Assembly: GCA_934163035.1 (NCBI GenBank)
Contig: CAKPJX010000001.1
Location: forward strand, 17,294 to 81,293
Source: an uncultured Bacilli bacterium
Lineage (GTDB): Bacteria > Bacillota_I > Bacilli_A > RF39 > UBA660
Direction: 5' to 3'
DNA: 64,000 nucleotides
The position numbers and the translations under genes were made by a program. Numbering within the stretch: the first letter of the stretch is position 1; each line of letters opens with the position of its first letter. Shown piece by piece: positions 2,035 to 64,000 of this stretch. The notes beneath the pieces are model-generated. The model saw only the letters and a program-made list of their open reading frames with translations, was not told the DNA's origin and made no database searches.

Positions 2035-2578
2035 TAATACCACCTCTTTCTTCACTTTTTACAATTTCTTCAGCACTTCTTTTCAAAGTACCCAAGCCTC
2101 GGTTAACTATTTCATAATCATATTCATCAAAAAGAACCAATTCCGTTTCAGTAACATGACTTCTTTCATCACTAGATAATCCATCATCATAATTTTCTCT
2201 AGTTAAATGTATAGAAATAACATTATCATATCTTTTCTTCATTTCCCTAAATTCCATAATAAGTCTGGCATCAGTAATAATAAATGTATCAAAAAAATTT
2301 TCTAAAATCTCAATATCTTCACAAAGACGATCAATTAAAAAACAATTTTTATGAAGCTTATTCTTTATAATCTCAATTCCCATCTTCTGTAAAAATTCTC
2401 TAGGTTTTTCATGTTCATTACCATCCCACTCAAAATAATTTCTGGCATAAGCATATAAAGGCTCAGTAAGATGCATAACACATGGCCTATATCCATACTT
2501 TTTTAATTCTTCACTTAAATATTTTCCAAATGTTGTTTTCCCACATCTAGCACCACCACCAATAATAAATATTCTCAT
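2027..2578 (-). CDS. P-loop kinase-like protein (deoxynucleotide monophosphate kinase-like)
   Basis: MRIFIIGGGARCGKTT Walker A, with an AAAGGAG RBS at 2590..2584. It is the first gene downstream of the T-box leader. Confidence 0.6.
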   Translation of the reverse strand: MRIFIIGGGARCGKTTFGKYLSEELKKYGYRPCVMHLTEPLYAYARNYFEWDGNEHEKPREFLQKMGIEIIKNKLHKNCFLIDRLCEDIEILENFFDTFIITDARLIMEFREMKKRYDNVISIHLTRENYDDGLSSDERSHVTETELVLFDEYDYEIVNRGLGTLKRSAEEIVKSEERGGINA

Positions 2579-2595
2579 AAATTCTCCTTTTTAAT

Positions 2596-2750
2596 CAAAT
2601 AAAAGACCTCAACAGGAGGACATCAAGCCCGGTACCATCCTATTTTGGTCTTAATTAACATAACGGTTTTCATCCGATTAAGCTCATAAAGTAGCTTCAA
2701 AGATAAATCAATACTAATTTGCACCAACCATTAGCTCTCTAAAAAGATTT
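2596..2750 (-). promoter_or_regulatory. T-box riboswitch leader, specifier GCU (Ala)
   Basis: Minus-strand reading:
- AGAGAG at 2740..2735
- a GGUGCAA element
- GAA-GCU-A with GCU at 2675..2673
- T-box core AAAAUAGGAUGGUACCGGGC at 2646..2627
- helix AAGACCAAAAUAGGA / UCCUGUUGAGGUCUU followed by UUUAUUUG. Confidence 0.75.
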
Positions 2751-2753
2751 TAT

Positions 2754-3932
2754 CTAATACTCATCTTTACTCAATGCTTCTTTAACATTAGAATTATTCA
2801 ATCCTTCAAAAAAGTGAAATTTCTCATTAAGAAATAAGAATATAACTTTTAGGCATGCAACTACAGGAGTTGCTACTACCATACCTATGATACCAAAGAA
2901 ATGTTGAAAAATCAATAGACTAATCATTATTGTAACTGGATGTAATTTCATCGTATGACCCATTATTAAAGGTTGATAGAAATTATTCTCTAAGGTTTGA
3001 ACAACAGCAATAGATACCACAGTACAAATACCTACAACAGGAGATTGACTAAAGCCAACTAAAACAGCTGGAATAGCTCCAATATATGGGCCAAAATATG
3101 GAATGATATCAGTAATAGCACAAAAAAGTGCAAACAAAAGTGGTGCCTTAAGACCAGCTAATGTAAGACCAACTCCCTGAGTAATAAAAACTAAAAACAT
3201 AACAATAAATACACCCTGAACATAGCCTCGTAAAGAATTATTAATTCTAGACATTAATTCCTTATACCAATCAAGCCATTTATTAGGAATAATACTCATA
3301 ATACGTTTATTAATCTTATTATAATCATATAACATATAAAAGCCTATCATGACACCTAAAACTAAAGAAATACCACCACTAATAATAGATTTTCCCATAT
3401 TAAGAACACTATTAGGTAAATCAGTAGTAATATTAACTGCAAAATTTTCTATACTGTGATATAGTTCCTGTTTTGCAGCCGATATATCAAAAAGTTCTGT
3501 CTTAATATTTTCAAAAAGTCCATTTATAAATATTTTAGCATCTACAACAATATCTGGAATAGATCCAATGAAGTCTTTTACCTGCATCGCAAAAGTAGGA
3601 ACAAGTAAATAAACGGCTAATGAAAGTCCCCCAATAAATACTAAGTATATTAAAATACATCCTAATAATCTAGGCACTTTCTTAGACTGTAGCCACGAAA
3701 GCAGAGGATCAAATAGCCAAGCAATTATAATGCCTACAAATATAGGCGAAATAACTATAAGTAATTCCTTAATAATATTAAAAATTTTCCATTCCTTAAG
3801 AAGATATGTACCTAAAACAATTAAAACTATAATTGTAACAATATAGATAATTTGCATTAATCTTTTACCAATTTCTAAAATCTCATTTAAATTATCTATA
3901 TCTACTTCCTTTTCCTTACGCTTTCTAAACAT
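2754..3932 (-). CDS. AI-2E family transporter (PerM/YhhT-like permease)
   Basis: 392-aa polytopic membrane protein. Its length, topology and conserved C-terminal PYFGPYIGAIPA-type segment are typical of the AI-2E family. Confidence 0.75.
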   Translation of the reverse strand: MFRKRKEKEVDIDNLNEILEIGKRLMQIIYIVTIIVLIVLGTYLLKEWKIFNIIKELLIVISPIFVGIIIAWLFDPLLSWLQSKKVPRLLGCILIYLVFIGGLSLAVYLLVPTFAMQVKDFIGSIPDIVVDAKIFINGLFENIKTELFDISAAKQELYHSIENFAVNITTDLPNSVLNMGKSIISGGISLVLGVMIGFYMLYDYNKINKRIMSIIPNKWLDWYKELMSRINNSLRGYVQGVFIVMFLVFITQGVGLTLAGLKAPLLFALFCAITDIIPYFGPYIGAIPAVLVGFSQSPVVGICTVVSIAVVQTLENNFYQPLIMGHTMKLHPVTIMISLLIFQHFFGIIGMVVATPVVACLKVIFLFLNEKFHFFEGLNNSNVKEALSKDEY

Positions 3933-4014
3933 AACTCATCCTCCTTACTTAAATTATATCACATAAACTAGCAATAGATCACCAAATAAAGTATAATATT
4001 TTTAGGTGATATAA

Positions 4015-4605
4015 ATGTATTCAATAAATAAGGTAAAAACAAGTGAAATAATTATTAAGAATTCTCGTTTTATTACTATATTAGTGCCAATAACTTCAAA
4101 GTCAAATATAACTAACATACTAGATAAAATAAAAGAAAATTATCCAAAAGCAAATCACTACTGTTACGCTTATATTACAGAAAATTCTCAAAAATCAAGT
4201 GATGATAAAGAACCATCATCAACAGCTGGTATACCAATGTTAAATGTATTAATAAAAAATAATATAATAAATGTACTAGCAGTAACTGTAAGATACTTTG
4301 GAGGAATAAAACTAGGTGCTGGTGGCTTAATAAGAGCCTACTGCAAATCAGTAACAACAGCTCTTAAAAGCACCAAATTAATAGAACTAGAAGATGCTAT
4401 AGAAATAGAAATATATGTAGAATATAATAATCAAAAAAATCTAGAAAATATTTTAAAAGCATCAAAAATAACAGAAAAAGAATTTACAGACAAAATTAAA
4501 TATATTGCCATAATCCCAATAATTATTAAAGATAAACTTAATAACTATGAGTATAAAATCTTAAATGAAAAATGTTACTTAGAAAAATATGAATATGAAT
4601 CATAA
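4015..4605 (+). CDS. yigZ: YigZ/IMPACT family protein
   Basis: Motifs KNSRFI, ANHYCYAY, DDKEPSSTAG and RYFGGIKLGAGGLIRAY. Confidence 0.85.
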   Translation: MYSINKVKTSEIIIKNSRFITILVPITSKSNITNILDKIKENYPKANHYCYAYITENSQKSSDDKEPSSTAGIPMLNVLIKNNIINVLAVTVRYFGGIKLGAGGLIRAYCKSVTTALKSTKLIELEDAIEIEIYVEYNNQKNLENILKASKITEKEFTDKIKYIAIIPIIIKDKLNNYEYKILNEKCYLEKYEYES

Positions 4606-4625
4606 ATAAGTACATACTATATAAT

Positions 4626-5150
4626 ATGAAAAAGAAAAATATTATAAAATTTTTTAGTGTATTGATAATATCTGTAATATCTCATTTTATATATGATAAT
4701 ATCCAATCAGTACTAACAAGTATTTTCTTTCCAGTAAATGAAAGTATCTTTGAACACATGAAGTTAATTATAACTCCAATCCTACTATTTACAATAATAG
4801 AATATTTATACGATAAATATAAAAAAATAGATACTACAAACTTATTATTAGCAAACGTCATCTCGGCAATATTAGGTATAATCTTCTACTTAATAATTTA
4901 TCTACCAATAGATAGTGTTATTGGATATAAAATGATAGTAGCTATAGGCTTATTAATAATTGACTTTGTCTTTACAACCTTAATAGCAGAAAAAATTAAG
5001 GAGAAATTAAAGGTTAAACATAGTGATCTACTAGCAATAATTATAATTATAGTATCCTATGCCATAATCACTTATCTAACCTATGCTCCCCCTCATATAA
5101 AATTATTTTTAGATATAACAGATAACTCATACGGAATCAAAAAAAGATAA
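4626..5150 (+). CDS. small integral membrane protein (DUF6512-like)
   Basis: 174 aa with several TM helices and a FPVNESIFEHMKL motif. Confidence 0.5.
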   Translation: MKKKNIIKFFSVLIISVISHFIYDNIQSVLTSIFFPVNESIFEHMKLIITPILLFTIIEYLYDKYKKIDTTNLLLANVISAILGIIFYLIIYLPIDSVIGYKMIVAIGLLIIDFVFTTLIAEKIKEKLKVKHSDLLAIIIIIVSYAIITYLTYAPPHIKLFLDITDNSYGIKKR

Positions 5151-10864: not shown

Positions 10865-13210
10865 TTAATTAGCACAAGGCCAAGGTTTTAGAGTATCACA
10901 TTTATTCTTAGGAGGAATATAACTTGCCTTTTTAGTAGAACAATTTCCAGCTCTATCACAAATTTTAAGATCAGCTTTAATAACCTTAACAGTACTTTTT
11001 CTACTTAAGCAAATTGAAGCCCCACTCAAAAACTTTCCTGATAATGCACCATTATTAGCGTTGTCCCAATTATAGGTAGCATTACCATACCCATTATTTG
11101 AGCAAGTATTACCCGAGAACTGCTCTCCTTCTTCAATTTGATAGCAATATTTAAAATAAGCATTATTTGTTGATATACCAGACAAATTATCTGTAAACGT
11201 ATATCCAAATTTATAATAACCATGATCATTCGTTATGCCACAAGTAGTCATGTCTAATTTTTCAACAAACTTAGGTGGGTCTTTATCAACTTTTAAAGTA
11301 ATATCACATGTATTAACTCTTCCAGCATTATTTTTTATATAACCATACCATTTTTGCTTTTTAGTATTATCTGTTTGCTTGGCAGTTAAATTTTTTTTAT
11401 TATATGAAGGCGTTTTAGAAGTTGTCAATTTATAACCAGCTATACCACTTGTACTTGTACCATTAGTCATAGTTAATTTAACATTAGATGTATACCAATT
11501 ATTATCACCCTTAGTACCACTTGCACTAATGCTACATGTAGGTGAATTTTTATCAACTTTTACACTAATACTGCATTTGTTAACATTTCCAGCATTGTTT
11601 TTTACATAACCATACCATTTTTGCTTTTTAGTATTATCTGTTTGATTGCCAGTTAAAATAGTTCCATTATATGAAGGTTTATCTGAAGTTGTTAATATAG
11701 CGCCAGCTATACCACTTGTACTTGTACCATTAGTCATAGTTAATTTAACATTAGATGTATACCAATTATTATCACCCTTAGTACCACTTGCACTAATGCT
11801 ACATGTAGGTGAATTTTTATCAACCTTTATAGTTTTATAACATTCATTAACATTACCAGCTTTATCTTTTACATAACCATACCAATTTTGCTTTTTAGTA
11901 TTATCTGTTTGATTACCAGTTAAAATAGTTCCATTATATAAAGGTTTATCTGAAGTTGTTAATATAGCACCAGCTATACCACTACCATTTTTATCATCCT
12001 TACTCATATCTAGTCTAACATCAGATGTATACCAATCATTATCGCCCTTAGTACCACTTACAGTAATACCACATAATGGCTTTTCTTTATCTATTTTTAC
12101 ACTAAATTTCTTCTCTGCTATTTTATCATTTCCATATTTAGTTTTAAACGCTAATTTCTGTGTTTTAACTTTTTGATCTTCAGCAATAACATTAGTTTCC
12201 ACTTCTTCTTTAGAACTGCCATCAGAAAGTATTATATCTATTTTTTTGCCACAAGCATCAGTAGCTGTTGCAGTTACATAGACATTTTTATTGGTCCATG
12301 TATTGTTTTTATAATCATCATACTGTTTAATATTTTTAATATCAATATTACTATCATACTTTTTAGCAATCACTTTTATCTGTGGCTTGATATAATTAAC
12401 TGTAATAGTCTTACTTAATACTTCATACTGATAATCACTATCGGCATAACGATATTTTAATACTAATTTATAGTTTTTATTTTCTTCCTTCTGAACTATC
12501 TTATCAGCAAAAGATAAACTAATATTCGCCAAATTATTAAGATCATCTATTTTAGTATATTCTAATTTTTTTATTAAACCTTGATTATCACTACTAACAG
12601 AATCGATTAAGGAATACCCAAGTTCTACAATTCTTTTATTTTCATCGCTATCAACTGCTAATGTTAATTTAGCATCATTACTATTAGAAATACATGATGG
12701 AACATTCCTAATCTGTGCAATTTTATTGTTATCTATATTTTTACATACAGTTGGAACAGTAAATGTTGTTTGATACACTACTTCTTTCCCATTCTTCTTA
12801 CATATAATTGTTGGATAATACTTATAATTCCCTGATTCCTCCCTGACAACATATGCTGCTATATCATCACCAGTTCCAGTACATTCAACTCCATCTAAAT
12901 TATAACTCTTAAGTAAATTCCGACTCTTCAACTCTTCAAATTTTATACTAGCACATTGCGTATTTAAATCCCTTTTATTAAATTTGTCCTCACCATATGA
13001 ATCAATATATAATTTGGCAGAAGATATTATAGATTCCTCATATGACACATATTTTTTCTTTTCATTTTTTACTTGAATACCATTAACCACTGGCAAAGCA
13101 ATAGTAATAATAATTCCCAAAATAGCAATTGCTACAACCAATTCTACTAAAGTAAAACCAGTAGTTTTTTTATTTTCTTTATTATAAAATTTATCTTTCC
13201 AAGCCACCAC
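10865..13210 (-). CDS. modular type IV prepilin-like protein, 781 aa, with three tandem beta-sandwich-like repeats
   Basis: Class III signal peptide ...KKTTG/FTLVELVVAIAILGIIITIALP with G-1, F+1 and E+5. GTG start. A pilin-like head with Cys pairs is followed by 3 x 89-aa repeats and a Cys-rich tail. Confidence 0.8.
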   Translation of the reverse strand: MVAWKDKFYNKENKKTTGFTLVELVVAIAILGIIITIALPVVNGIQVKNEKKKYVSYEESIISSAKLYIDSYGEDKFNKRDLNTQCASIKFEELKSRNLLKSYNLDGVECTGTGDDIAAYVVREESGNYKYYPTIICKKNGKEVVYQTTFTVPTVCKNIDNNKIAQIRNVPSCISNSNDAKLTLAVDSDENKRIVELGYSLIDSVSSDNQGLIKKLEYTKIDDLNNLANISLSFADKIVQKEENKNYKLVLKYRYADSDYQYEVLSKTITVNYIKPQIKVIAKKYDSNIDIKNIKQYDDYKNNTWTNKNVYVTATATDACGKKIDIILSDGSSKEEVETNVIAEDQKVKTQKLAFKTKYGNDKIAEKKFSVKIDKEKPLCGITVSGTKGDNDWYTSDVRLDMSKDDKNGSGIAGAILTTSDKPLYNGTILTGNQTDNTKKQNWYGYVKDKAGNVNECYKTIKVDKNSPTCSISASGTKGDNNWYTSNVKLTMTNGTSTSGIAGAILTTSDKPSYNGTILTGNQTDNTKKQKWYGYVKNNAGNVNKCSISVKVDKNSPTCSISASGTKGDNNWYTSNVKLTMTNGTSTSGIAGYKLTTSKTPSYNKKNLTAKQTDNTKKQKWYGYIKNNAGRVNTCDITLKVDKDPPKFVEKLDMTTCGITNDHGYYKFGYTFTDNLSGISTNNAYFKYCYQIEEGEQFSGNTCSNNGYGNATYNWDNANNGALSGKFLSGASICLSRKSTVKVIKADLKICDRAGNCSTKKASYIPPKNKCDTLKPWPCAN
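11281..12085 (-). repeat. three tandem 267-bp coding repeats inside the pilin gene
   Basis: The string ccagctataccacttgtacttgtacc... recurs at 11436 and 11703, exactly 267 nt apart, with a run of ~120 identical nt. A third, more diverged copy lies at ~11818..12085. Confidence 0.9.
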
Positions 13211-48957: not shown

Positions 48958-50934
48958 ATGGTAGAGACAGAAGTAAAGGAGATTGCTATAAAGAATAAAG
49001 ATTCTAATACAGTATCTTTTGATTATGAGAAAACTCCTATTACCCAAATCGCTGATTATATTATTATAAATGCCTCAAATCGAAATAGTTCCGATATCCA
49101 TTTCGACCCTAGAGAAGATGGAATGATGGTAAGATTTAGAATTGATGGTGAATTACAAGACTATACTTTCGTTCCAAAAACTTATGAAAGAAATTTAGTA
49201 ACGCGTCTTAAATTAATATCTAATATGAATATAACTGAATCACGTCTACCACAAGATGGAGCAATCAAAGGTACATTTGGTGGAAAAGAACTAGATATGC
49301 GTGTATCTTGCTTACCATTAAATGAAGGTGAAAAAGTCGTTATTCGTATTCTTGACTATACTAGAAGTTTACAAGGAATTGATAGTCTCGGTTTTAATAA
49401 AGCTAATTTAGCTAAACTAAAGAGAATGATGGGTGTACCTAATGGTATTATCCTAGTTACAGGAGCTACAGGTTCTGGTAAATCAACCACTACCTACTCT
49501 ATATTACAAGGTCTAAATAAACCAGAAATTAATATCATAACTGTTGAAGACCCAATCGAAATGAACATTGAAGGAATGAATCAGGTTCAAGTTAATGCTG
49601 AAATTGGTATGACCTTTGCTGCTGCTCTACGTTCTATTTTGCGTCAAGATCCAAATGTTATCCTAATAGGAGAAATTCGTGACTCTGAAACAGCTCAAAT
49701 AGCAGTACGTGCTTCAATCACAGGGCACCTTGTTCTATCAACAATCCATACCAATAACTCGCTCGCAACAATCGAACGTTTACTAGATATGGATGTAGAA
49801 AGATACTTGCTTTCAACTGCCCTAACGGGTATCATTTCACAAAGACTAGCTAAAAAACTTTGTACTAAATGTCGTATACAAAGACCAACTACTAAATATG
49901 AAAAAAAGGTCTTTAAAAAATATATGCATACTGATGTAGACATTATATGGGATGCCAATCCAAAAGGATGTGACAGTTGTCGTCGAGGTTATAAAGGCAG
50001 AATTGCTATTCAAGAAGTACTAGAAATTGATGATGAAATTAGAAATGCCCTAAATAATGAAAAACTTAAAAAAGAAGATTTAAGTAACATGGTATATACA
50101 GATAAAACTATAACTATGCTTCAAGATGCCCTTGGTAAGGCTCTAGCTGGCTTAACTAGTTTTGAAGAAGTATACAGAGTAATTGAAATAGAAAATGATG
50201 ATGATGATTCAGGTGGTGAATTAACAAAAGCAATTGAAGAAACAACTACACCAGTTACTGAACCTGAAAAAGTAGTTGAGAAAAAGGAAGTAAATATAAC
50301 ACCAACCACTGTTACAAAAGCCGATCAAACAATAAAGATTCCAACAAATAATGTAGCACCACAAAAACAAGTACCAGTAAATACTACTCCTGGACAAATA
50401 ACAACTGCAACCGTTAAAACAGTAACAACTACAGCTCCAAATGTCAAAGAAATACCTAAAAATATAAATCCTGTTGATGTTGCAAATGTTCAAACTGTAA
50501 ACCCCGCACCTATCAATAAGACAATCATAAATCAAAACAAGATAGCAAATGCTACACCTGTACCTAAACAAATTCAACCTAATCAAGTGATTAAACAATA
50601 TCCAGTACCACAACAGCAAATAGCTAAGCCAATAAATCAACAAGTACCTACACAGCAAATAGCTAAGCCAATAAATCAACAAGTACCAGTACAACAAACA
50701 GCTAAACCAATAAACCAGCAAGTACCTGTACAACAACAAATAACTAAACCGGTAACACAGCAGGCTGCAATAAATCAAACAGTAAAAACACCTGGACAAG
50801 TTATAAATAATAGACAAATACCAAATCAACAACAAGTAATAAGAAATGCACCTGTCCAACAACCACAACAAATACCTCAGAATCAACAACAAGTTCGCAC
50901 AGGTCAAGTAGTTATTCCAACTATTAAACAATAA
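48958..50934 (+). CDS. GspE/PilB/ComGA-family secretion ATPase with a long low-complexity C-terminal tail
   Basis: - Walker A GATGSGKSTT.
- Walker B region ILIGEIRD.
- His box GHLVLSTIHTN.
- Tetracysteine CTKC...CDSC.
- From ~aa 412 on, a Q/P/T/N/V-rich tail. Confidence 0.88.
   Translation: MVETEVKEIAIKNKDSNTVSFDYEKTPITQIADYIIINASNRNSSDIHFDPREDGMMVRFRIDGELQDYTFVPKTYERNLVTRLKLISNMNITESRLPQDGAIKGTFGGKELDMRVSCLPLNEGEKVVIRILDYTRSLQGIDSLGFNKANLAKLKRMMGVPNGIILVTGATGSGKSTTTYSILQGLNKPEINIITVEDPIEMNIEGMNQVQVNAEIGMTFAAALRSILRQDPNVILIGEIRDSETAQIAVRASITGHLVLSTIHTNNSLATIERLLDMDVERYLLSTALTGIISQRLAKKLCTKCRIQRPTTKYEKKVFKKYMHTDVDIIWDANPKGCDSCRRGYKGRIAIQEVLEIDDEIRNALNNEKLKKEDLSNMVYTDKTITMLQDALGKALAGLTSFEEVYRVIEIENDDDDSGGELTKAIEETTTPVTEPEKVVEKKEVNITPTTVTKADQTIKIPTNNVAPQKQVPVNTTPGQITTATVKTVTTTAPNVKEIPKNINPVDVANVQTVNPAPINKTIINQNKIANATPVPKQIQPNQVIKQYPVPQQQIAKPINQQVPTQQIAKPINQQVPVQQTAKPINQQVPVQQQITKPVTQQAAINQTVKTPGQVINNRQIPNQQQVIRNAPVQQPQQIPQNQQQVRTGQVVIPTIKQ
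50611..50766 (+). repeat. about four tandem 39-nt (13-aa) repeats in the ATPase tail
   Basis: CAGCAAATAGCTAAGCCAATAAATCAACAAGTACC recurs at 50614 and 50653. The peptides are QQIAKPINQQVPT, QQIAKPINQQVPV, QQTAKPINQQVPV and QQQITKPVTQQAA. Confidence 0.85.
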
Positions 50935-59841: not shown

Positions 59842-61731
59842 TTATTCATTTGTTTTTTTTACCTTTTGGAAACCATTAACTAAAGTAGTCTCATCACTTT
59901 TATAAATTTTTTCCTTATAAATATCAAGTGCTTTAAGTGTTGCACGCCTAACAGTGCCAACACAAACACCAAACTCATTTGCTACATCTTGATCAGTTAC
60001 AAACTCCCTATCAACAACTTTTAATCTAGCATAAGCTAAAGCAGCCTCTGAAGTAGGCATAAAATCTATCATTTCCGATACAGACATTAACATCGAATTA
60101 AGTAAATCAAATTGTTTACTATCAATCAAATTTAAAGATAAGACTCCATTCATCTCCTCTTCAATAATTGAATCTATTAAAATCCTATCATTATCCATTT
60201 CACTAAATAATACTTGAAGCTCTCCCCTCGAAAGAACTTTATCCGGGTGCTTTTTAATATTTTTTAAAATCTTTCGCATTTTAGGTATGACCTTATACAA
60301 ACGCTCAGACAATGTGCTAGTCCAATTATCATCTTTTTCTGCCCTAGTAAGATCATCCCCATAACGCATTCTTAATAGTTTTCTTTCATTATAAGACAAT
60401 CTAGAAACCATATTATCAACCTGTAATTTTGAAAAAGGAACAAACTGATCATATAAATTCTTAACCTTACCATTATAATAGTCAGCTATATTATTCTTTA
60501 TATTGCCAAAAGCAACACTTTCCCTATATCCTTCTATAGCAGCAAATGCTCTTTCAGGATTATCCATATATAATGTTAAAGAGTTTACATTTGAAGAACA
60601 AATAAATTTAGAAATAGCTTTAGATTCAATCTGCCGAACCCTTTCTTTTGTATATCCCCATTCCTTTCCAATTTCCTCTAACGTATATATTCGGTCAAGA
60701 AAACCAAAGCGTAAAAGCAAGATTTTCCTTTCTTTATCAGTCAGTAAAGTATTATTAAACAATTCATCCGTATCAGCAATCATATTATTATTTTCACTTT
60801 CATCATAAATATCAGAATCACTTGGAACAAACTCTAGTAATTCAACACCATCACGTTCATCAGAAACCATACTATTAAGACTAATAGCATCATCTTTTAA
60901 ACTATTTAAAAGTATTGCCTTTGATACAGATATACCCATATCTTCAGCAATTTCCTCAATCTTAGGTCTTCTACTTAATTTAATACTAAGCTTCTCACTT
61001 ACCCTATTAAATTTTAAAACATTTTCTTGAAGATGAATTGGAACTTTAATATTTCTTGATAATTCATATGAAGCTCTAGAAACAGCTTGCCTAATCCACC
61101 ATGTAGCATAAGTAGAAAACCTGCACCCCATATTTAAATCGAATTTATCTATAGTGTTTATTAACCCAATATTTCCCTCTTGAATTAAATCAAGTAAAGG
61201 AACTCCCTTGTTAGCATATTTTTTAGCAATACTAACAACTAGCCTTAAATTTGAATTTATCAACTTATCTCTAGCAACTTTATCACCAGATTTTGCCCTA
61301 ACTATAAACTCCTCAGTTTCTAAAGTAGAAAGTAGTGGATATTTTGATATTTCTTTAAAATACATTTTAATACTATCAGGAAGATCAGCAATATTATTAG
61401 AATTAGTAACAACAGAATCATTATCAATTTCAATACCATTTTTTAAACAATATCCACTCAATAACATAACTAAAATTTCATCATCAGAATAATAAATATG
61501 TGTTTTCAAAAAATCTCTATTGCTTTTACATAAACACCTGATAAGAGAACATAACTTATTATTGTCCATCAACTTTAAATAATAAGATGAAAAATCTATA
61601 TCAAAATCTCTAAATGAGCTAGTAATCTTTTTAAGCTCAATAATATTATCCTCATAATTATCACTAACACTAACACATTTGTTTAAATAATCATTTAACA
61701 CATCAATAATTTTATCATCAGTAATTGCCAT
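59842..61731 (-). CDS. RpoD/SigA-like sigma-70 factor with a ~245-aa C-terminal extension
   Basis: - Region 1.2-2: MYFKEISKYPLLS...NLRLVVSIAKKY...DLIQEGNIGL...FSTYATWWIRQA.
- Region 3: KVPIHLQENVLKF.
- Region 4: LTDKERKILLLRFGF...EEIGKEWGYTKERVRQIESKAISKF.
- About 245 further residues follow region 4. Confidence 0.85.
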   Translation of the reverse strand: MAITDDKIIDVLNDYLNKCVSVSDNYEDNIIELKKITSSFRDFDIDFSSYYLKLMDNNKLCSLIRCLCKSNRDFLKTHIYYSDDEILVMLLSGYCLKNGIEIDNDSVVTNSNNIADLPDSIKMYFKEISKYPLLSTLETEEFIVRAKSGDKVARDKLINSNLRLVVSIAKKYANKGVPLLDLIQEGNIGLINTIDKFDLNMGCRFSTYATWWIRQAVSRASYELSRNIKVPIHLQENVLKFNRVSEKLSIKLSRRPKIEEIAEDMGISVSKAILLNSLKDDAISLNSMVSDERDGVELLEFVPSDSDIYDESENNNMIADTDELFNNTLLTDKERKILLLRFGFLDRIYTLEEIGKEWGYTKERVRQIESKAISKFICSSNVNSLTLYMDNPERAFAAIEGYRESVAFGNIKNNIADYYNGKVKNLYDQFVPFSKLQVDNMVSRLSYNERKLLRMRYGDDLTRAEKDDNWTSTLSERLYKVIPKMRKILKNIKKHPDKVLSRGELQVLFSEMDNDRILIDSIIEEEMNGVLSLNLIDSKQFDLLNSMLMSVSEMIDFMPTSEAALAYARLKVVDREFVTDQDVANEFGVCVGTVRRATLKALDIYKEKIYKSDETTLVNGFQKVKKTNE

Positions 61732-61746
61732 TAAAATCCCTCCATA

Positions 61747-62052
61747 TCATTTAACCTTTTTTAACATTTTAGATGATAATCCTACAAACTCAGCCAAGTT
61801 TATAACATCATAATTAGAAGAAAGTTTTTTTAAAGCTTTGTTTTTATAATAATATGTATTTTTACAATTATCATCACCTAAAGCTTCTTTTTGCACATCT
61901 TGTTCAAAACCAAAATAACTTAATAAACAAAATCTTTCCTTATCAGTCAAATCAGTCTCAGCAATAATTCTATCAAGTTCTCCAATCAAAAAGTTAGACT
62001 CTACTCTATCAATAACATCCATATCGCCAGGGATATTATCTACTATAGGCAA
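61747..62052 (-). CDS. sigma-70 region 4 fragment (3' part of a frameshifted sigma gene)
   Basis: LTDKERFCLLSYFGF...YYYKNKALKKL. The frame stays open upstream past the stop of the preceding ORF. The track start is a TTG. Confidence 0.6.
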   Translation of the reverse strand: MPIVDNIPGDMDVIDRVESNFLIGELDRIIAETDLTDKERFCLLSYFGFEQDVQKEALGDDNCKNTYYYKNKALKKLSSNYDVINLAEFVGLSSKMLKKVK

Positions 62053-62116
62053 AAAGCCATCATCAGTAGCTATATCAGAATAAGAACTATAATAACTATT
62101 AAAACTTGAATATATA

Positions 62117-62788
62117 CTAATAGCATGATAATTTATTTTTAATAAGCTCCAATTCTTTAGAAGTAATACCTAATATATCACAAGTAACATCATCTTTTAA
62201 TTTTTTACACTCAGACTCGTATTGATAACTAAGTTTTTCATATTTATGAATTAAAGAATGGATATTTAATGGCACGGAAAAAGGATAAGCAACTTCGCCA
62301 TAATATTGATACAAACTATTAATAATACACCTATATGCATAAGTAGAAAACTTCGTTCCTCTAGTAAAATCAAACCTATCTATCGCCTTAATTAAAGCAA
62401 TACCATTAATTTCAAATTCATCATGATAACAATTAAAAAGTTTTTGTAAATCAACACTTTTTAAAACTATTCCCTTGGCCACTGATAAATTAGGATAATA
62501 ACCAATAATATCAAAAAAATGATTAAGAACTTCTGTTAAATTAGAGCCATCATAATTTTGAAACAAATATTCATTAAGAAAATAATTAAATGCTCCACTC
62601 GAAATCAATTTTTCTATATATTCACTGTAACTAACCCAAAGTCTAGAAAAAATATAGCTATTAAAATCTTCACAAGTGCTACTACTAAAATTTTTAGTAA
62701 TAGAATTAACTAATTTAGAAAATTTTCTTTCATTAAATCCAAGATATTCAAACTTATTTTTATAGTATTCTAAATCAATAATCGCCAT
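62117..62788 (-). CDS. sigma-70 region 2/3 fragment (5' part of a frameshifted sigma gene)
   Basis: GIALIKAIDRFDFTRGTKFSTYAYRCIINS (2.2-2.4), VPLNIHSLIHKY and ILGITSKELELI (region 3). It ends at TAG 62117..62119 with no region 4. Confidence 0.6.
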   Translation of the reverse strand: MAIIDLEYYKNKFEYLGFNERKFSKLVNSITKNFSSSTCEDFNSYIFSRLWVSYSEYIEKLISSGAFNYFLNEYLFQNYDGSNLTEVLNHFFDIIGYYPNLSVAKGIVLKSVDLQKLFNCYHDEFEINGIALIKAIDRFDFTRGTKFSTYAYRCIINSLYQYYGEVAYPFSVPLNIHSLIHKYEKLSYQYESECKKLKDDVTCDILGITSKELELIKNKLSCY

Positions 62789-62819: not shown

Positions 62820-63950
62820 TTACCGATTATTTTTTAATTGCTTAACTAACTTTTTTGCACTGAAAGGATATTCACTACAATCAGCCAACAATTCAGCATC
62901 AGAACAGGTAACTAGTTTTTTTAAAGCATTCTTTAAAATTATGTTAATATTTTGCCTAGAAGTACCAAACAAATCACCAATAGCTTGAAGACTAAGAGGT
63001 GAATTACCATAAAAACCAAACCTAAGTCTAACAATTTCTAACTGTTTATTAGTTAATGACTTTTTAAGTATATTATCTATAATTATCCGATTCAAATCAT
63101 CTTCATGTTCTTCAAATATAGAACTATTAGGATCTACAATTAAACTTAAAAAATCATCCGAATCACATTCACCATCTTTAATAATAGGTGCGTCCAAACT
63201 TCTAATATTATAGTAAGCATTATAAATATCATATATTCGCTGAGAACTAACATTAATGCTTTTAGCAATCTCGTCAATTTCTGGCTTTCTACCCAAAGTT
63301 TGTTCTAATTCTATCTCCTGTTTCCTAAATTTACTAATAATCGTCCTGGCATCAACTGGTAACTTAACCTGATTATATTTAGATATAGCCTTACCGATTT
63401 TAGTCTTAATACAATATCCAGCATATGTAGAAAATTTAAACCCTTTAAAAGGATCAAACTTATCAACGGCTTCAACTAAACCAAAATACCCTTCTTGAAA
63501 AAGATCCATTAAAGAAAGAGATGTATAATCACTTACCTTACTTGCAAAATACAGAACAAGTCTATAATTTCTTTCTAAAAATTCTAGTTTACTATCTTCA
63601 TCGCCCGATCTAATCCTTTCAAAATATTGAACTTCTTCTTCCTTAGTAATAGGAGGTCTTTGAGAATTTTTACCTGAAAATATTAGTTTTATTCCATCAT
63701 CATCAAAATCAGAGCCAAAACCATTATAAGCTTCTTTAATAATCTTTTTTTCTGAATCAATAATAGCACTACTGACAAATAATTTTTCAAAAGTTATATT
63801 ACAAAATTTAGTTAAAGAAGGCCTACCCTTTATTTTATCAACTATCAATTTTAAATTATCGCATGACTCAAGCATACCAACATATGAAAAATCATCACCA
63901 TCATAACCTATATCACTTAAAAAATCATCTAATTCATTAATCTTATTCAT
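62820..63950 (-). CDS. sigma-70 family RNA polymerase sigma factor (paralog)
   Basis: - Region 2: NYRLVLYFASK...DLFQEGYFGLVEAVDKFDPFKGFKFSTYA.
- Region 3: KLPVDARTIISKF.
- Region 4: LTNKQLEIVRLRFGF...LQAIGDLFGTSRQNINIILKNALKKL.
- The frame stays open upstream to the window edge and the RBS at 63950 is weak, so the true start may lie beyond 64000. Confidence 0.8.
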   Translation of the reverse strand: MNKINELDDFLSDIGYDGDDFSYVGMLESCDNLKLIVDKIKGRPSLTKFCNITFEKLFVSSAIIDSEKKIIKEAYNGFGSDFDDDGIKLIFSGKNSQRPPITKEEEVQYFERIRSGDEDSKLEFLERNYRLVLYFASKVSDYTSLSLMDLFQEGYFGLVEAVDKFDPFKGFKFSTYAGYCIKTKIGKAISKYNQVKLPVDARTIISKFRKQEIELEQTLGRKPEIDEIAKSINVSSQRIYDIYNAYYNIRSLDAPIIKDGECDSDDFLSLIVDPNSSIFEEHEDDLNRIIIDNILKKSLTNKQLEIVRLRFGFYGNSPLSLQAIGDLFGTSRQNINIILKNALKKLVTCSDAELLADCSEYPFSAKKLVKQLKNNR

Positions 63951-64000
63951 ACATTCACTAATACTAGCTTCCGAAATGTTAAAGGTATCAACTATATTAG

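Follow-up and report, generated by a model that had tools for sequence, protein, structure and literature searches.

Why should an RpoD-like sigma factor continue far beyond the region 4 with which proteins of its class end? The question is raised by a gene in a 64,000-nucleotide stretch of DNA from an uncultured Bacilli bacterium (contig CAKPJX010000001.1 of assembly GCA_934163035.1, positions 17,294 to 81,293), which we call the window. An open reading frame (ORF) on its minus strand (59842..61731) has an ATG start, with a GGAGGG ribosome-binding site 8 nucleotides (nt) 5' of it, and encodes an RpoD-like sigma factor of 629 amino acids (aa). From its N-terminus, the complete protein consists of an N domain, a sigma core, a post-sigma-4 linker, a module that we name R, a mid segment of helices, a second module that we name T, and a short C-terminal tail; all coordinates given below within this gene are on the minus strand. 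NF006666, the NCBIfam model of Firmicute RpoD, aligns residues 110-390 to its positions 91-370 of 370, so that 239 residues (391-629; nt 59845..60561) lie beyond the end of RpoD. A sequence-only reading of this DNA had described the span 59842..60579, which is residues 385-629 plus the stop codon, as an extension with segments resembling sigma regions 4.1 and 4.2, and that description was accurate. We find that R and T both very probably descend from sigma region 4, and that the finding is more general than the earlier description held: the extension is one member of a large uncharacterised family of cassettes in uncultured gut Bacilli. We know of no group 1-3 sigma factor with a C-terminal extension, and the literature that we found on C-terminal sigma extensions describes only extracytoplasmic function (ECF) sigma factors. 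The architecture would surprise a specialist in sigma factors; the function of the cassette is something that we infer.

The extension belongs to one intact gene

Could the tail be a gene of its own, lying downstream of the sigma gene and fused to it by a mistake in assembly or sequencing, or else a decaying duplication without function? Standalone genes consisting of one or more R units and a T unit, R(n)T, do occur in relatives, and a 1-nt indel is present in a sigma-like paralog next to this gene in the window. Against this, one continuous frame spans the gene in every assembly that we compared. A second assembly of the same species (L001, from Logan accession SRR29133601) is 99.5% identical to the window over 4159 nt, and in the sigma gene it differs by eight substitutions, which cause three amino acid changes, and by no indels; five of the eight differing codons are synonymous. 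Three related species have orthologs of 630-634 aa (P0002-P0004; 59-64% identity over 100% of the length), each with an uninterrupted frame on an independent contig (L083-L085). These contigs share their neighbouring genes, with sigma paralogs upstream, and a deoD-like purine nucleoside phosphorylase and two M16 peptidases downstream.

The sequence of the tail has also been kept. Identity to the three orthologs is 60-66% in the core, 67-72% in the post-sigma-4 linker, 53-59% in module R, 56-60% in the mid segment (7-22% when distant members are compared), 64-71% in module T, and 65-88% in the last 17 residues (613-629). Because the identity of the tail (53-72%) matches that of the core, we conclude that the tail is constrained like the core, and since independent assemblies share the frame, that it is real and not an assembly error; no stop codon or frameshift had been missed. 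Structure prediction by AlphaFold2 (AF2) also gives high confidence for the tail. The artefact explanation is effectively refuted, and we regard it as vanishingly improbable.

Two tail modules with homology to sigma region 4

The modules of the tail were revealed by alignment with distant long relatives (698-1016 aa). The post-sigma-4 linker that precedes them (residues 379-421; 60469..60597), which contains LTLYMDNPERAFAAIEGYRESVAFGN, begins as the canonical RpoD C-terminal tail, and the rest of it forms two helices (positions 5-11 and 13-28 of an AF2 model of the extension alone). When the 629-aa sigma is aligned to a canonical RpoD from a related metagenome-assembled genome (MAG; L031), the alignment stops at residue 389.

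Module R (residues 422-495; 60247..60468) is assigned as a sigma-4-derived repeat unit, with a 4.1-like segment (LS..ERKLL.MRYGDDL) and one long basic helix (RLYKVIPKMRKILKNIKK). The region-4.1-like string VSRLSYNERKLLRMRYGDDL that had been picked out from the sequence is residues 442-461 (60349..60408), inside this module, and the resemblance was borne out by profile comparison: hhalign aligned R to the sigma region 4 profile with a probability of 95.8% (E = 8e-9, 53 columns). The alignment is gapped at the first helix of the helix-turn-helix (HTH), which is missing in R, while the region 4.1 motif L..RE..LL.LRYG is kept. The family consensus of R is about 70 aa long (KTIYEYFseYSKEEVD.AIskLseedKeLLklRYGeDLdnP.....ltkee..kFY..LiPKIKrlL). 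In the window protein, a local hidden Markov model (HMM) of R matches residues 422-495 with an independent E-value (iE) of 2.4e-29 (the window protein is in the seed), the Pfam families Sigma70_r4_2 and r4 match residues 436-465 weakly, and the module has a net charge of +9 and an isoelectric point (pI) of 10. The mid segment (residues 496-540; 60112..60246) consists of acidic helices that link R to T (123-132 and 136-148 of the extension-only model, pLDDT about 79-90); it is conserved in the close clade, and long and polar in distant relatives.

Module T (residues 541-612; 59896..60111) is a complete sigma-4-like domain, with a 4.1-like helix (SEAALAYARLK) and then an HTH (DQDVANEF / VGTVRRATLKAL). 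The HTH-like string near the end of the protein that had been compared to region 4.2, VTDQDVANEF...DIYKE, is residues 578-607 (59911..60000) and lies inside T. Here too the likeness held up, with an hhalign probability of 98.1% against the sigma region 4 profile (E = 7e-14, 58 columns). Searched against PDB, a profile of the tail without the sigma core matched region 4 of Thermus thermophilus SigA (9ujk_F, E = 5e-9), Thermotoga maritima RpoD (1tty_A, E = 9e-8) and Thermus aquaticus sigma-A (1ku3, E = 1e-6), and the profile positions matched are those of T. The T consensus is about 75 aa long (LELLKTPtF.qMl..LSpKEAVIISLKLGYVDGKYFSTEsIAnFLGIEEeEViEiTKKVLLLYKE), and the local T HMM matches residues 541-612 with an iE of 4.1e-32, although T is divergent in the window's clade, which has ARLKVVDREF where the family has LKLGYVDGKYF. 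The protein closes with a C-terminal tail (residues 613-629; 59845..59895) that ends in TLVNGFQKVKKTNE and is predicted to be disordered (pLDDT < 50).

The AF2 model of the extension alone is compact (pLDDT 85.5, pTM 0.75), with R, the mid segment and T packed as one unit and showing the expected helices. Compared with PDB by Foldseek, it gave local matches to sigma region 4 (for example 1ku3, with a target-normalised TM-score of 0.66 and a root-mean-square deviation of 3.2 Å over 58 columns) whose E-values were not significant, and no match with E < 0.5. The top match, TFIIB (E = 0.5), was judged to be noise. Because the Foldseek E-values are not significant, the homology to region 4 rests on the profile methods, that is, hhalign and the tail-only profile.

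From these comparisons, R appears to be a truncated, strongly basic region 4 unit and T a complete region-4-like HTH. T resembles sigma-70 region 4 in its layout of a 4.1 helix followed by an HTH, and keeps the region 4 core (LS.KEA.II.LKLGY). It differs in being acidic (median pI 4.9 across the family, versus 9.3 in true sigma-4) and in lacking the arginines that contact the -35 element: the T consensus has E/E/E at the positions of R584, R586 and Q589. R differs from region 4 in being short of one HTH helix. The suggestion that the extension might be a second reader of the -35 element is thus unlikely for the family as a whole; what stands of it is that T in the window's clade keeps, in an ECF-like helix (GTVRRATLKAL), two residues that we take to be the equivalents of R588 and K593 in Escherichia coli sigma-70 numbering.

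A large family of R(n)-T cassettes

A HMMER search with the tail profile, exhaustive over 1.84 billion representatives at 50% identity, recovered 1704 protein clusters at E ≤ 1e-3, of which 412 had E ≤ 1e-30. The extension is not unique to this protein; it is one case in a family of at least 1704 clusters. Among the 150 of these 1704 that we inspected, the proteins are 178-1862 aa long with up to 20 matched stretches, and R is present in 1-19 copies, mostly closed by one T. To describe the architectures, we ran local HMMs for N, S (the sigma core), R and T on the best 147 matches and ten family proteins. They fall into three groups: N-S-R(1-12)-T; S-R(n)-T, in which the N domain is lacking; and R(n)T or R(n) without a sigma core, which make up about one third of the set. 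The window protein carries both characteristic units, an R unit (IYEYF..YSKEE.D....LS..EK.LL.LRYG.DL.NP ... FY..L.PKIK..L) and a terminal T unit (LS.KEA.II.LKLGY.D.KYFS...IA.FLGI...EV).

The cassette is a modular, repeatable element of these organisms. One of the standalone proteins, P0125 (640 aa, R6T), is encoded by a complete gene flanked by tex and a crp-like gene (L002, a human-gut contig of 236 kb). The sequence-only reading would have abandoned the idea of a sigma-4-like extension if the tail were found alone in relatives and also had no similarity to sigma-4; the standalone genes exist, and the lack of similarity was not found. Standalone R(n)T genes are often in tandem with a sigma gene (L039, L053, L059), and R-T-bearing sigma genes can themselves be paired in tandem (L029, L077). 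A class of short S-R-T proteins has a SigE/SigK-like core (for example L012:4290-5750), so the cassette has become attached to at least two sigma subfamilies. R is also used outside sigma factors, as shown by its fusion to phosphoesterases: proteins of 410-480 aa from 'Tenericutes'/Bacilli gut MAGs have an N-terminal R, a small HTH-like segment and a calcineurin-like metallophosphoesterase domain, with no recognisable T (L060:5001-6344, L065:5001-6266; similar ORFs are in L055, L058, L061, L062, L066, L068, L069, L071, L073-L076, L078 and L079). At the other extreme are R-rich members with 10-19 R units: P0121 (1415 aa), P0010 (1016 aa), P0147 (1862 aa) and P0181 (1620 aa). Adjacent R units are nearly identical in sequence in P0121 and P0010, which suggests recent tandem duplication and a fast-changing copy number.

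The species representatives of GTDB contain 80 loci with the cassette. Named hosts are MAGs of uncultured Bacilli, 'Tenericutes', Mollicutes, Erysipelotrichaceae or Mycoplasmatota from gut and rumen, and a few records bear other taxon labels or none. An alignment of the close-clade tail, scanned against the same representatives, found no relative, which means that no species of the window's genus is represented among them. When the 252-aa tail was used for a word-index protein search, nothing was matched, its own cluster included; we discarded this result as a failure of sensitivity, because a full-length query recovered orthologs with tails about 60% identical, and the exhaustive profile search found relatives as well.

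None of the resources that we searched names anything corresponding to the R(n)-T cassette. Pfam-A, NCBIfam, PHROGs and PADLOC contain no model for R or T beyond weak region 4 matches, and we found no description of the architecture in the literature on C-terminal extensions of primary sigmas, extra or tandem region 4, or RF39 sigma factors. A phage origin and membership of a known defence system are both unsupported, PHROGs and PADLOC having given nothing specific to the tail. A partial match of the standalone R6T protein to MPN403_MG284_C (27 bits, cut-off 37.3), on which the literature offered nothing of use, was not relied on. The family is of interest because it places a conserved tail of extra region 4 copies on sigma factors, a very well-studied class of bacterial protein, in at least 1700 clusters from abundant uncultured Bacilli of the gut and rumen.

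An RpoD-like core, probably of an alternative sigma factor

The sigma core (residues 111-390; 60562..61401) contains regions 1.2, 2, 3 and 4 by Pfam and NCBIfam. All four Pfam matches exceed their gathering scores: Sigma70_r1_2 at residues 119-135 (PF00140, 23.9 bits versus 22), r2 at 157-219 (PF04542, 65.3 versus 24), r3 at 236-306 (PF04539, 43 versus 25.3) and r4 at 330-375 (PF04545, 67.7 versus 24.1). The protein is therefore a member of the sigma-70 family by its regions 2 and 4, and RpoD-like (groups 1-2) by the presence of regions 1.2 and 3. Its genuine region 4 (residues 330-378; 60598..60744; PF04545 E = 6.3e-19) is also matched weakly by the local R HMM (iE 0.06) and T HMM (iE 0.0035). 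The motifs that read the -10 and -35 elements, FSTYATWWIRQA of region 2.3/2.4 and TKERVRQIE of region 4.2, are both retained in the core. N-terminal to it, where region 1.1 would be expected, is the N domain (residues 1-110; 61402..61731), which is family-specific, helical and acidic (pI 4.5). This domain has no match in Pfam, including PF03979 (region 1.1); it can be aligned to the N-terminal regions of the distant long relatives, which are longer, is matched by the local N HMM with E = 5e-37 (the window protein is in the seed), and is modelled with pLDDT 76-94. The AF2 model of the full-length protein has a mean pLDDT of 81 and a pTM of 0.44, and does not dock the tail confidently on the core. 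Its top Foldseek matches, which cover sigma cores only, are SigA of Staphylococcus aureus (8x6f_E, 42% identity) and SigA of Clostridioides difficile (7l7b_F, 44% identity).

Is this, then, the primary sigma factor of its organism, as the label 'group 1-like' in the sequence-only reading implied? If so, its second promoter-reading region 4 would give housekeeping promoters an additional upstream element. The best matches of the core are indeed the two SigA proteins and RpoD models, the -10 and -35 reading motifs are retained, sigma-70-like promoter candidates are present in the window, and the 629-aa protein is the most RpoD-like of four sigma paralogs encoded together in an array. On the other side, it fails every RpoD equivalog cut-off by a wide margin (NF006666, 253.6 versus 572; TIGR02393, 243.9 versus 354; NF004208, 236.7 versus 555) and is only 42-49% identical to the primary sigmas of other bacteria. 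It has no match to PF03979, which most ordinary RpoD relatives carry. Whereas group 1 proteins normally end within about 20 residues of region 4.2, here 239 residues follow, and the T module in them lacks most of the -35-contacting residues. Primary RpoD is essential and in Firmicutes its gene is usually linked to dnaG; this gene is in a tandem array of paralogs and not beside dnaG. Finally, the related uncultured Bacilli MAG L031 has a canonical RpoD (L031:1-1041; 590.8 bits for NF006666, above the cut-off of 572) located 3 kb upstream of a 444-aa S-R-T sigma (L031:4296-5630), and the core of the window protein is just 43% identical to it. Because of the low RpoD scores, the lack of a region 1.1 match, the tandem array and the canonical RpoD beside an R-T sigma in L031, we consider the group 1 label doubtful and a primary role unlikely. 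The 629-aa protein is probably a lineage-specific, RpoD-like alternative sigma factor.

Comparison with known systems

In the order of regions 1.2, 2, 3 and 4, in its promoter-reading motifs, and in the best sequence and fold matches of its core, the window protein resembles SigA/RpoD of Firmicutes (8x6f_E, 7l7b_F, NF006666). It differs from them in its moderate identity and low equivalog score, in the unrelated N domain that replaces region 1.1, in the 239 additional residues, and in the location of its gene in a tandem array of paralogs. To judge from sequence, the core is homologous to RpoD/SigA and should work in the same way, while falling outside the primary-sigma equivalogs.

The extensions of ECF41 and ECF42 sigma factors are unrelated to region 4, being of SnoaL-like and tetratricopeptide repeat types. 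These sigmas are nevertheless the nearest precedent for a functional C-terminal extension: as in the window protein, the chain continues past region 4 into an additional conserved domain that is expected to modulate the sigma factor in cis, and a cis-regulatory role has been described for the extension of ECF41 sigmas (PMC3426412). ECF41 and ECF42 belong to group 4 and have regions 2 and 4 only, whereas the window protein has regions 1.2 to 4, and its tail, unlike ECF extensions, is made of region 4 paralogs that can be repeated and that also occur as standalone proteins. It is thus not an ECF sigma with an extension of known type, since regions 1.2 and 3 are present and the extension is region-4-derived.

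HTH proteins resembling a standalone sigma-4 include those with GerE/LuxR-type domains and YlxM/p13. The Pfam tables contain no GerE family for the tail or the long relatives; UPF0122 is likewise missing for the tail, its one appearance being a match below the cut-off to a neighbouring sigma paralog. Another unusually long RpoD-like sigma is MzaA of the MZA anti-phage system (NF041931; PADLOC PDLC02203), whose sigma core matches that of the window protein. The extra length of MzaA is N-terminal to the core, which occupies model positions 465-716 of 726. We rejected identity with MzaA because the window protein scores 230.6 against a cut-off of 800 and is matched only in the core, and because PADLOC found no other MZA components or defence genes among the scanned proteins of the sigma array, the R(n)T set and the phosphoesterase set.

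Possible roles of the cassette

In structures of the RNA polymerase (RNAP) holoenzyme, region 4 has its C-terminus at the upstream boundary of the -35 element, beside the beta-flap tip and the sites that the C-terminal domain of the alpha subunit and class II activators use. The conserved helical linker of about 40 residues would hold R-T beside the DNA upstream of -35 and beside the station formed by the beta-flap and region 4. We propose that the cassette is a tethered accessory module that adds contacts at one or other of these places. For the window protein, the likeliest contact would be A/T-rich upstream DNA, made by two helices, the basic one in R and the recognition helix of T, which is partly basic, and the cassette could then act as a built-in UP-element or an activator-like anchor that tunes the promoter choice of an alternative sigma factor. 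We lean towards DNA contact in this protein because R has its high positive charge (+9, pI 10) and T keeps the R588 and K593 equivalents. The fusion of R to a metallophosphoesterase, a domain typical of nucleic-acid-directed enzymes, and the derivation of both modules from an HTH also suggest binding to nucleic acid.

Several observations weigh against this proposal. In the family at large, T is acidic and no longer has the -35-reading arginines, which disfavours classical HTH-DNA reading by T, and in R the first helix of the HTH is missing. It is difficult to see how 10-19 R units in a row would form an anchor close to the promoter, and the standalone R(n)T proteins indicate that attachment to a sigma factor is not required for the cassette to work. 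In about 30 upstream regions of the window, we found candidates for sigma-70-like -35 and -10 elements and no extra conserved element upstream of -35, in what is a small, A/T-rich sample. As for the alternative-sigma part of the proposal, RpoD and an R-T sigma were seen together in one related MAG only, where the R-T sigma is of the SigE/K-like and not the RpoD-like class.

A competing idea is that the cassette is a decoy or regulator aimed at the partners of region 4. T, with its DNA-reading residues removed, and R would then be rivals of the genuine region 4 for its partners, or would mask it from them; the tip helix of the beta-flap, a protein of anti-sigma type or an activator could be such a partner. 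When fused, the cassette would act by autoinhibition in cis or by partner switching, in the manner of ECF41/42-type extensions; when standalone, it would act in trans on neighbouring sigmas or on RNAP. The T consensus fits this idea, being acidic and keeping the region 4 core with glutamates at the three -35-contacting positions. So does the occurrence of fused and split forms, with standalone R(n)T genes beside sigma genes (L039, L053, L059), if Rosetta-stone logic is applied. The high variability of R copy number, the packing of R, mid segment and T into one compact unit (pTM 0.75) and the ECF41 precedent for cis-regulation (PMC3426412) point the same way. The window protein itself is a poorer fit: its R is very basic, its T keeps two basic residues in the recognition helix, the full-length model does not place the tail against the core with confidence (pTM 0.44), and no anti-sigma-like gene is evident beside the array in the window or L001. 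We rate the decoy or regulator explanation as possible but unlikely. Upstream DNA contact by the window protein, a tentative mechanism that draws on the charge and residues of its modules and for which we would put the prospects somewhat short of even, is favoured over it, and other protein-protein scaffolding roles take up the rest. Taken as a whole, the account of a lineage-specific sigma factor with a tethered, region-4-derived accessory cassette is the best explanation that we can offer, and we judge it about as apt to be right as wrong.

A broader conjecture covers fused and free cassettes together. R(n)-T arrays might be an undescribed class of transcription module, multivalent mimics of sigma-4 in uncultured gut Bacilli, though we think it rather improbable that this is so in full. 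Such mimics could bind the beta-flap of RNAP, upstream DNA, or regulators directed at sigma-4, and might serve as built-in activators, as anti-sigma-like competitors, or as decoys for those phage factors that are aimed at region 4. Were this correct, sigma activity in the clade would be under a mechanism without a characterised counterpart. Whether by upstream DNA contact or by competition for region 4 partners, the cassette would represent a new way to set promoter choice or sigma availability, and would open a way into gene regulation in a major lineage of uncultured gut bacteria.

Sigma array and genomic setting

The 629-aa sigma gene is the last gene of its array, whose order in L001 (6072..11890) is ftsK, a sigma gene of 498 aa, a sigma gene of 454 aa, a sigma-like gene of 346 aa, and then the 629-aa gene. 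With 15-30 nt between genes, the paralogs are apparently co-transcribed. The array is conserved in related species, with sigma genes of 498, 470 and 634 aa in L083, and of 443 and 631 aa in L084, where a gene of 437 aa, at the edge of the contig, comes before them. In the window, one inserted nucleotide at about 62135 splits the third, sigma-like paralog (61747..62788, minus strand) into ORFs of 223 and 101 aa; L001 has the gene intact, and the blastn alignment of the two shows a single gap (AAAAATAAATT in the window versus AAAAA-AAATT in L001). The insertion makes it either a strain-specific pseudogene or the product of a sequencing error. The second paralog (62820..64000, minus strand) has an open frame to at least 63998, and the window ends before the position of the start codon in L001; the first paralog and ftsK are further upstream in L001.

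The window carries lepA, RNase J, murC, a PilB/ComGA-type ATPase and an MMPL transporter, and is chromosomal and cellular. Its LepA is 99% identical to one protein cluster (P0280), which is encoded on a contig of 459 kb, and 81-84% identical to proteins labelled 'MAG: Bacilli bacterium'. The G+C content is about 27%, and the minus strand carries nearly all genes, and likewise almost every ORF of 100 aa or more. The GC skew of the plus strand is strongly negative (about -0.3) and the cumulative skew falls almost monotonically; together with the co-orientation of the genes, this places the window within one replichore. The gene for the ATPase, of PilB/GspE/ComGA type (48958..50934, plus strand), and a 781-aa ORF with an N-terminus like that of the minor pilin ComGE (10865..13210, minus strand) suggest that the organism has a type IV pilus or competence machinery.

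In a related human-gut species whose LepA is 87% identical to that of the window (L086/L087), the sigma array is absent upstream of lepA, and could still be elsewhere in the genome. This species is very frequently assembled, its LepA cluster (P0285) having 226 member sequences and entries in 360 blocks of the index. The genes adjoining its lepA (2315..5036) are gpr, encoding the germination protease, and spoIIP. A SigG-like gene is present in L022, and the wider lineage appears to keep sporulation genes.

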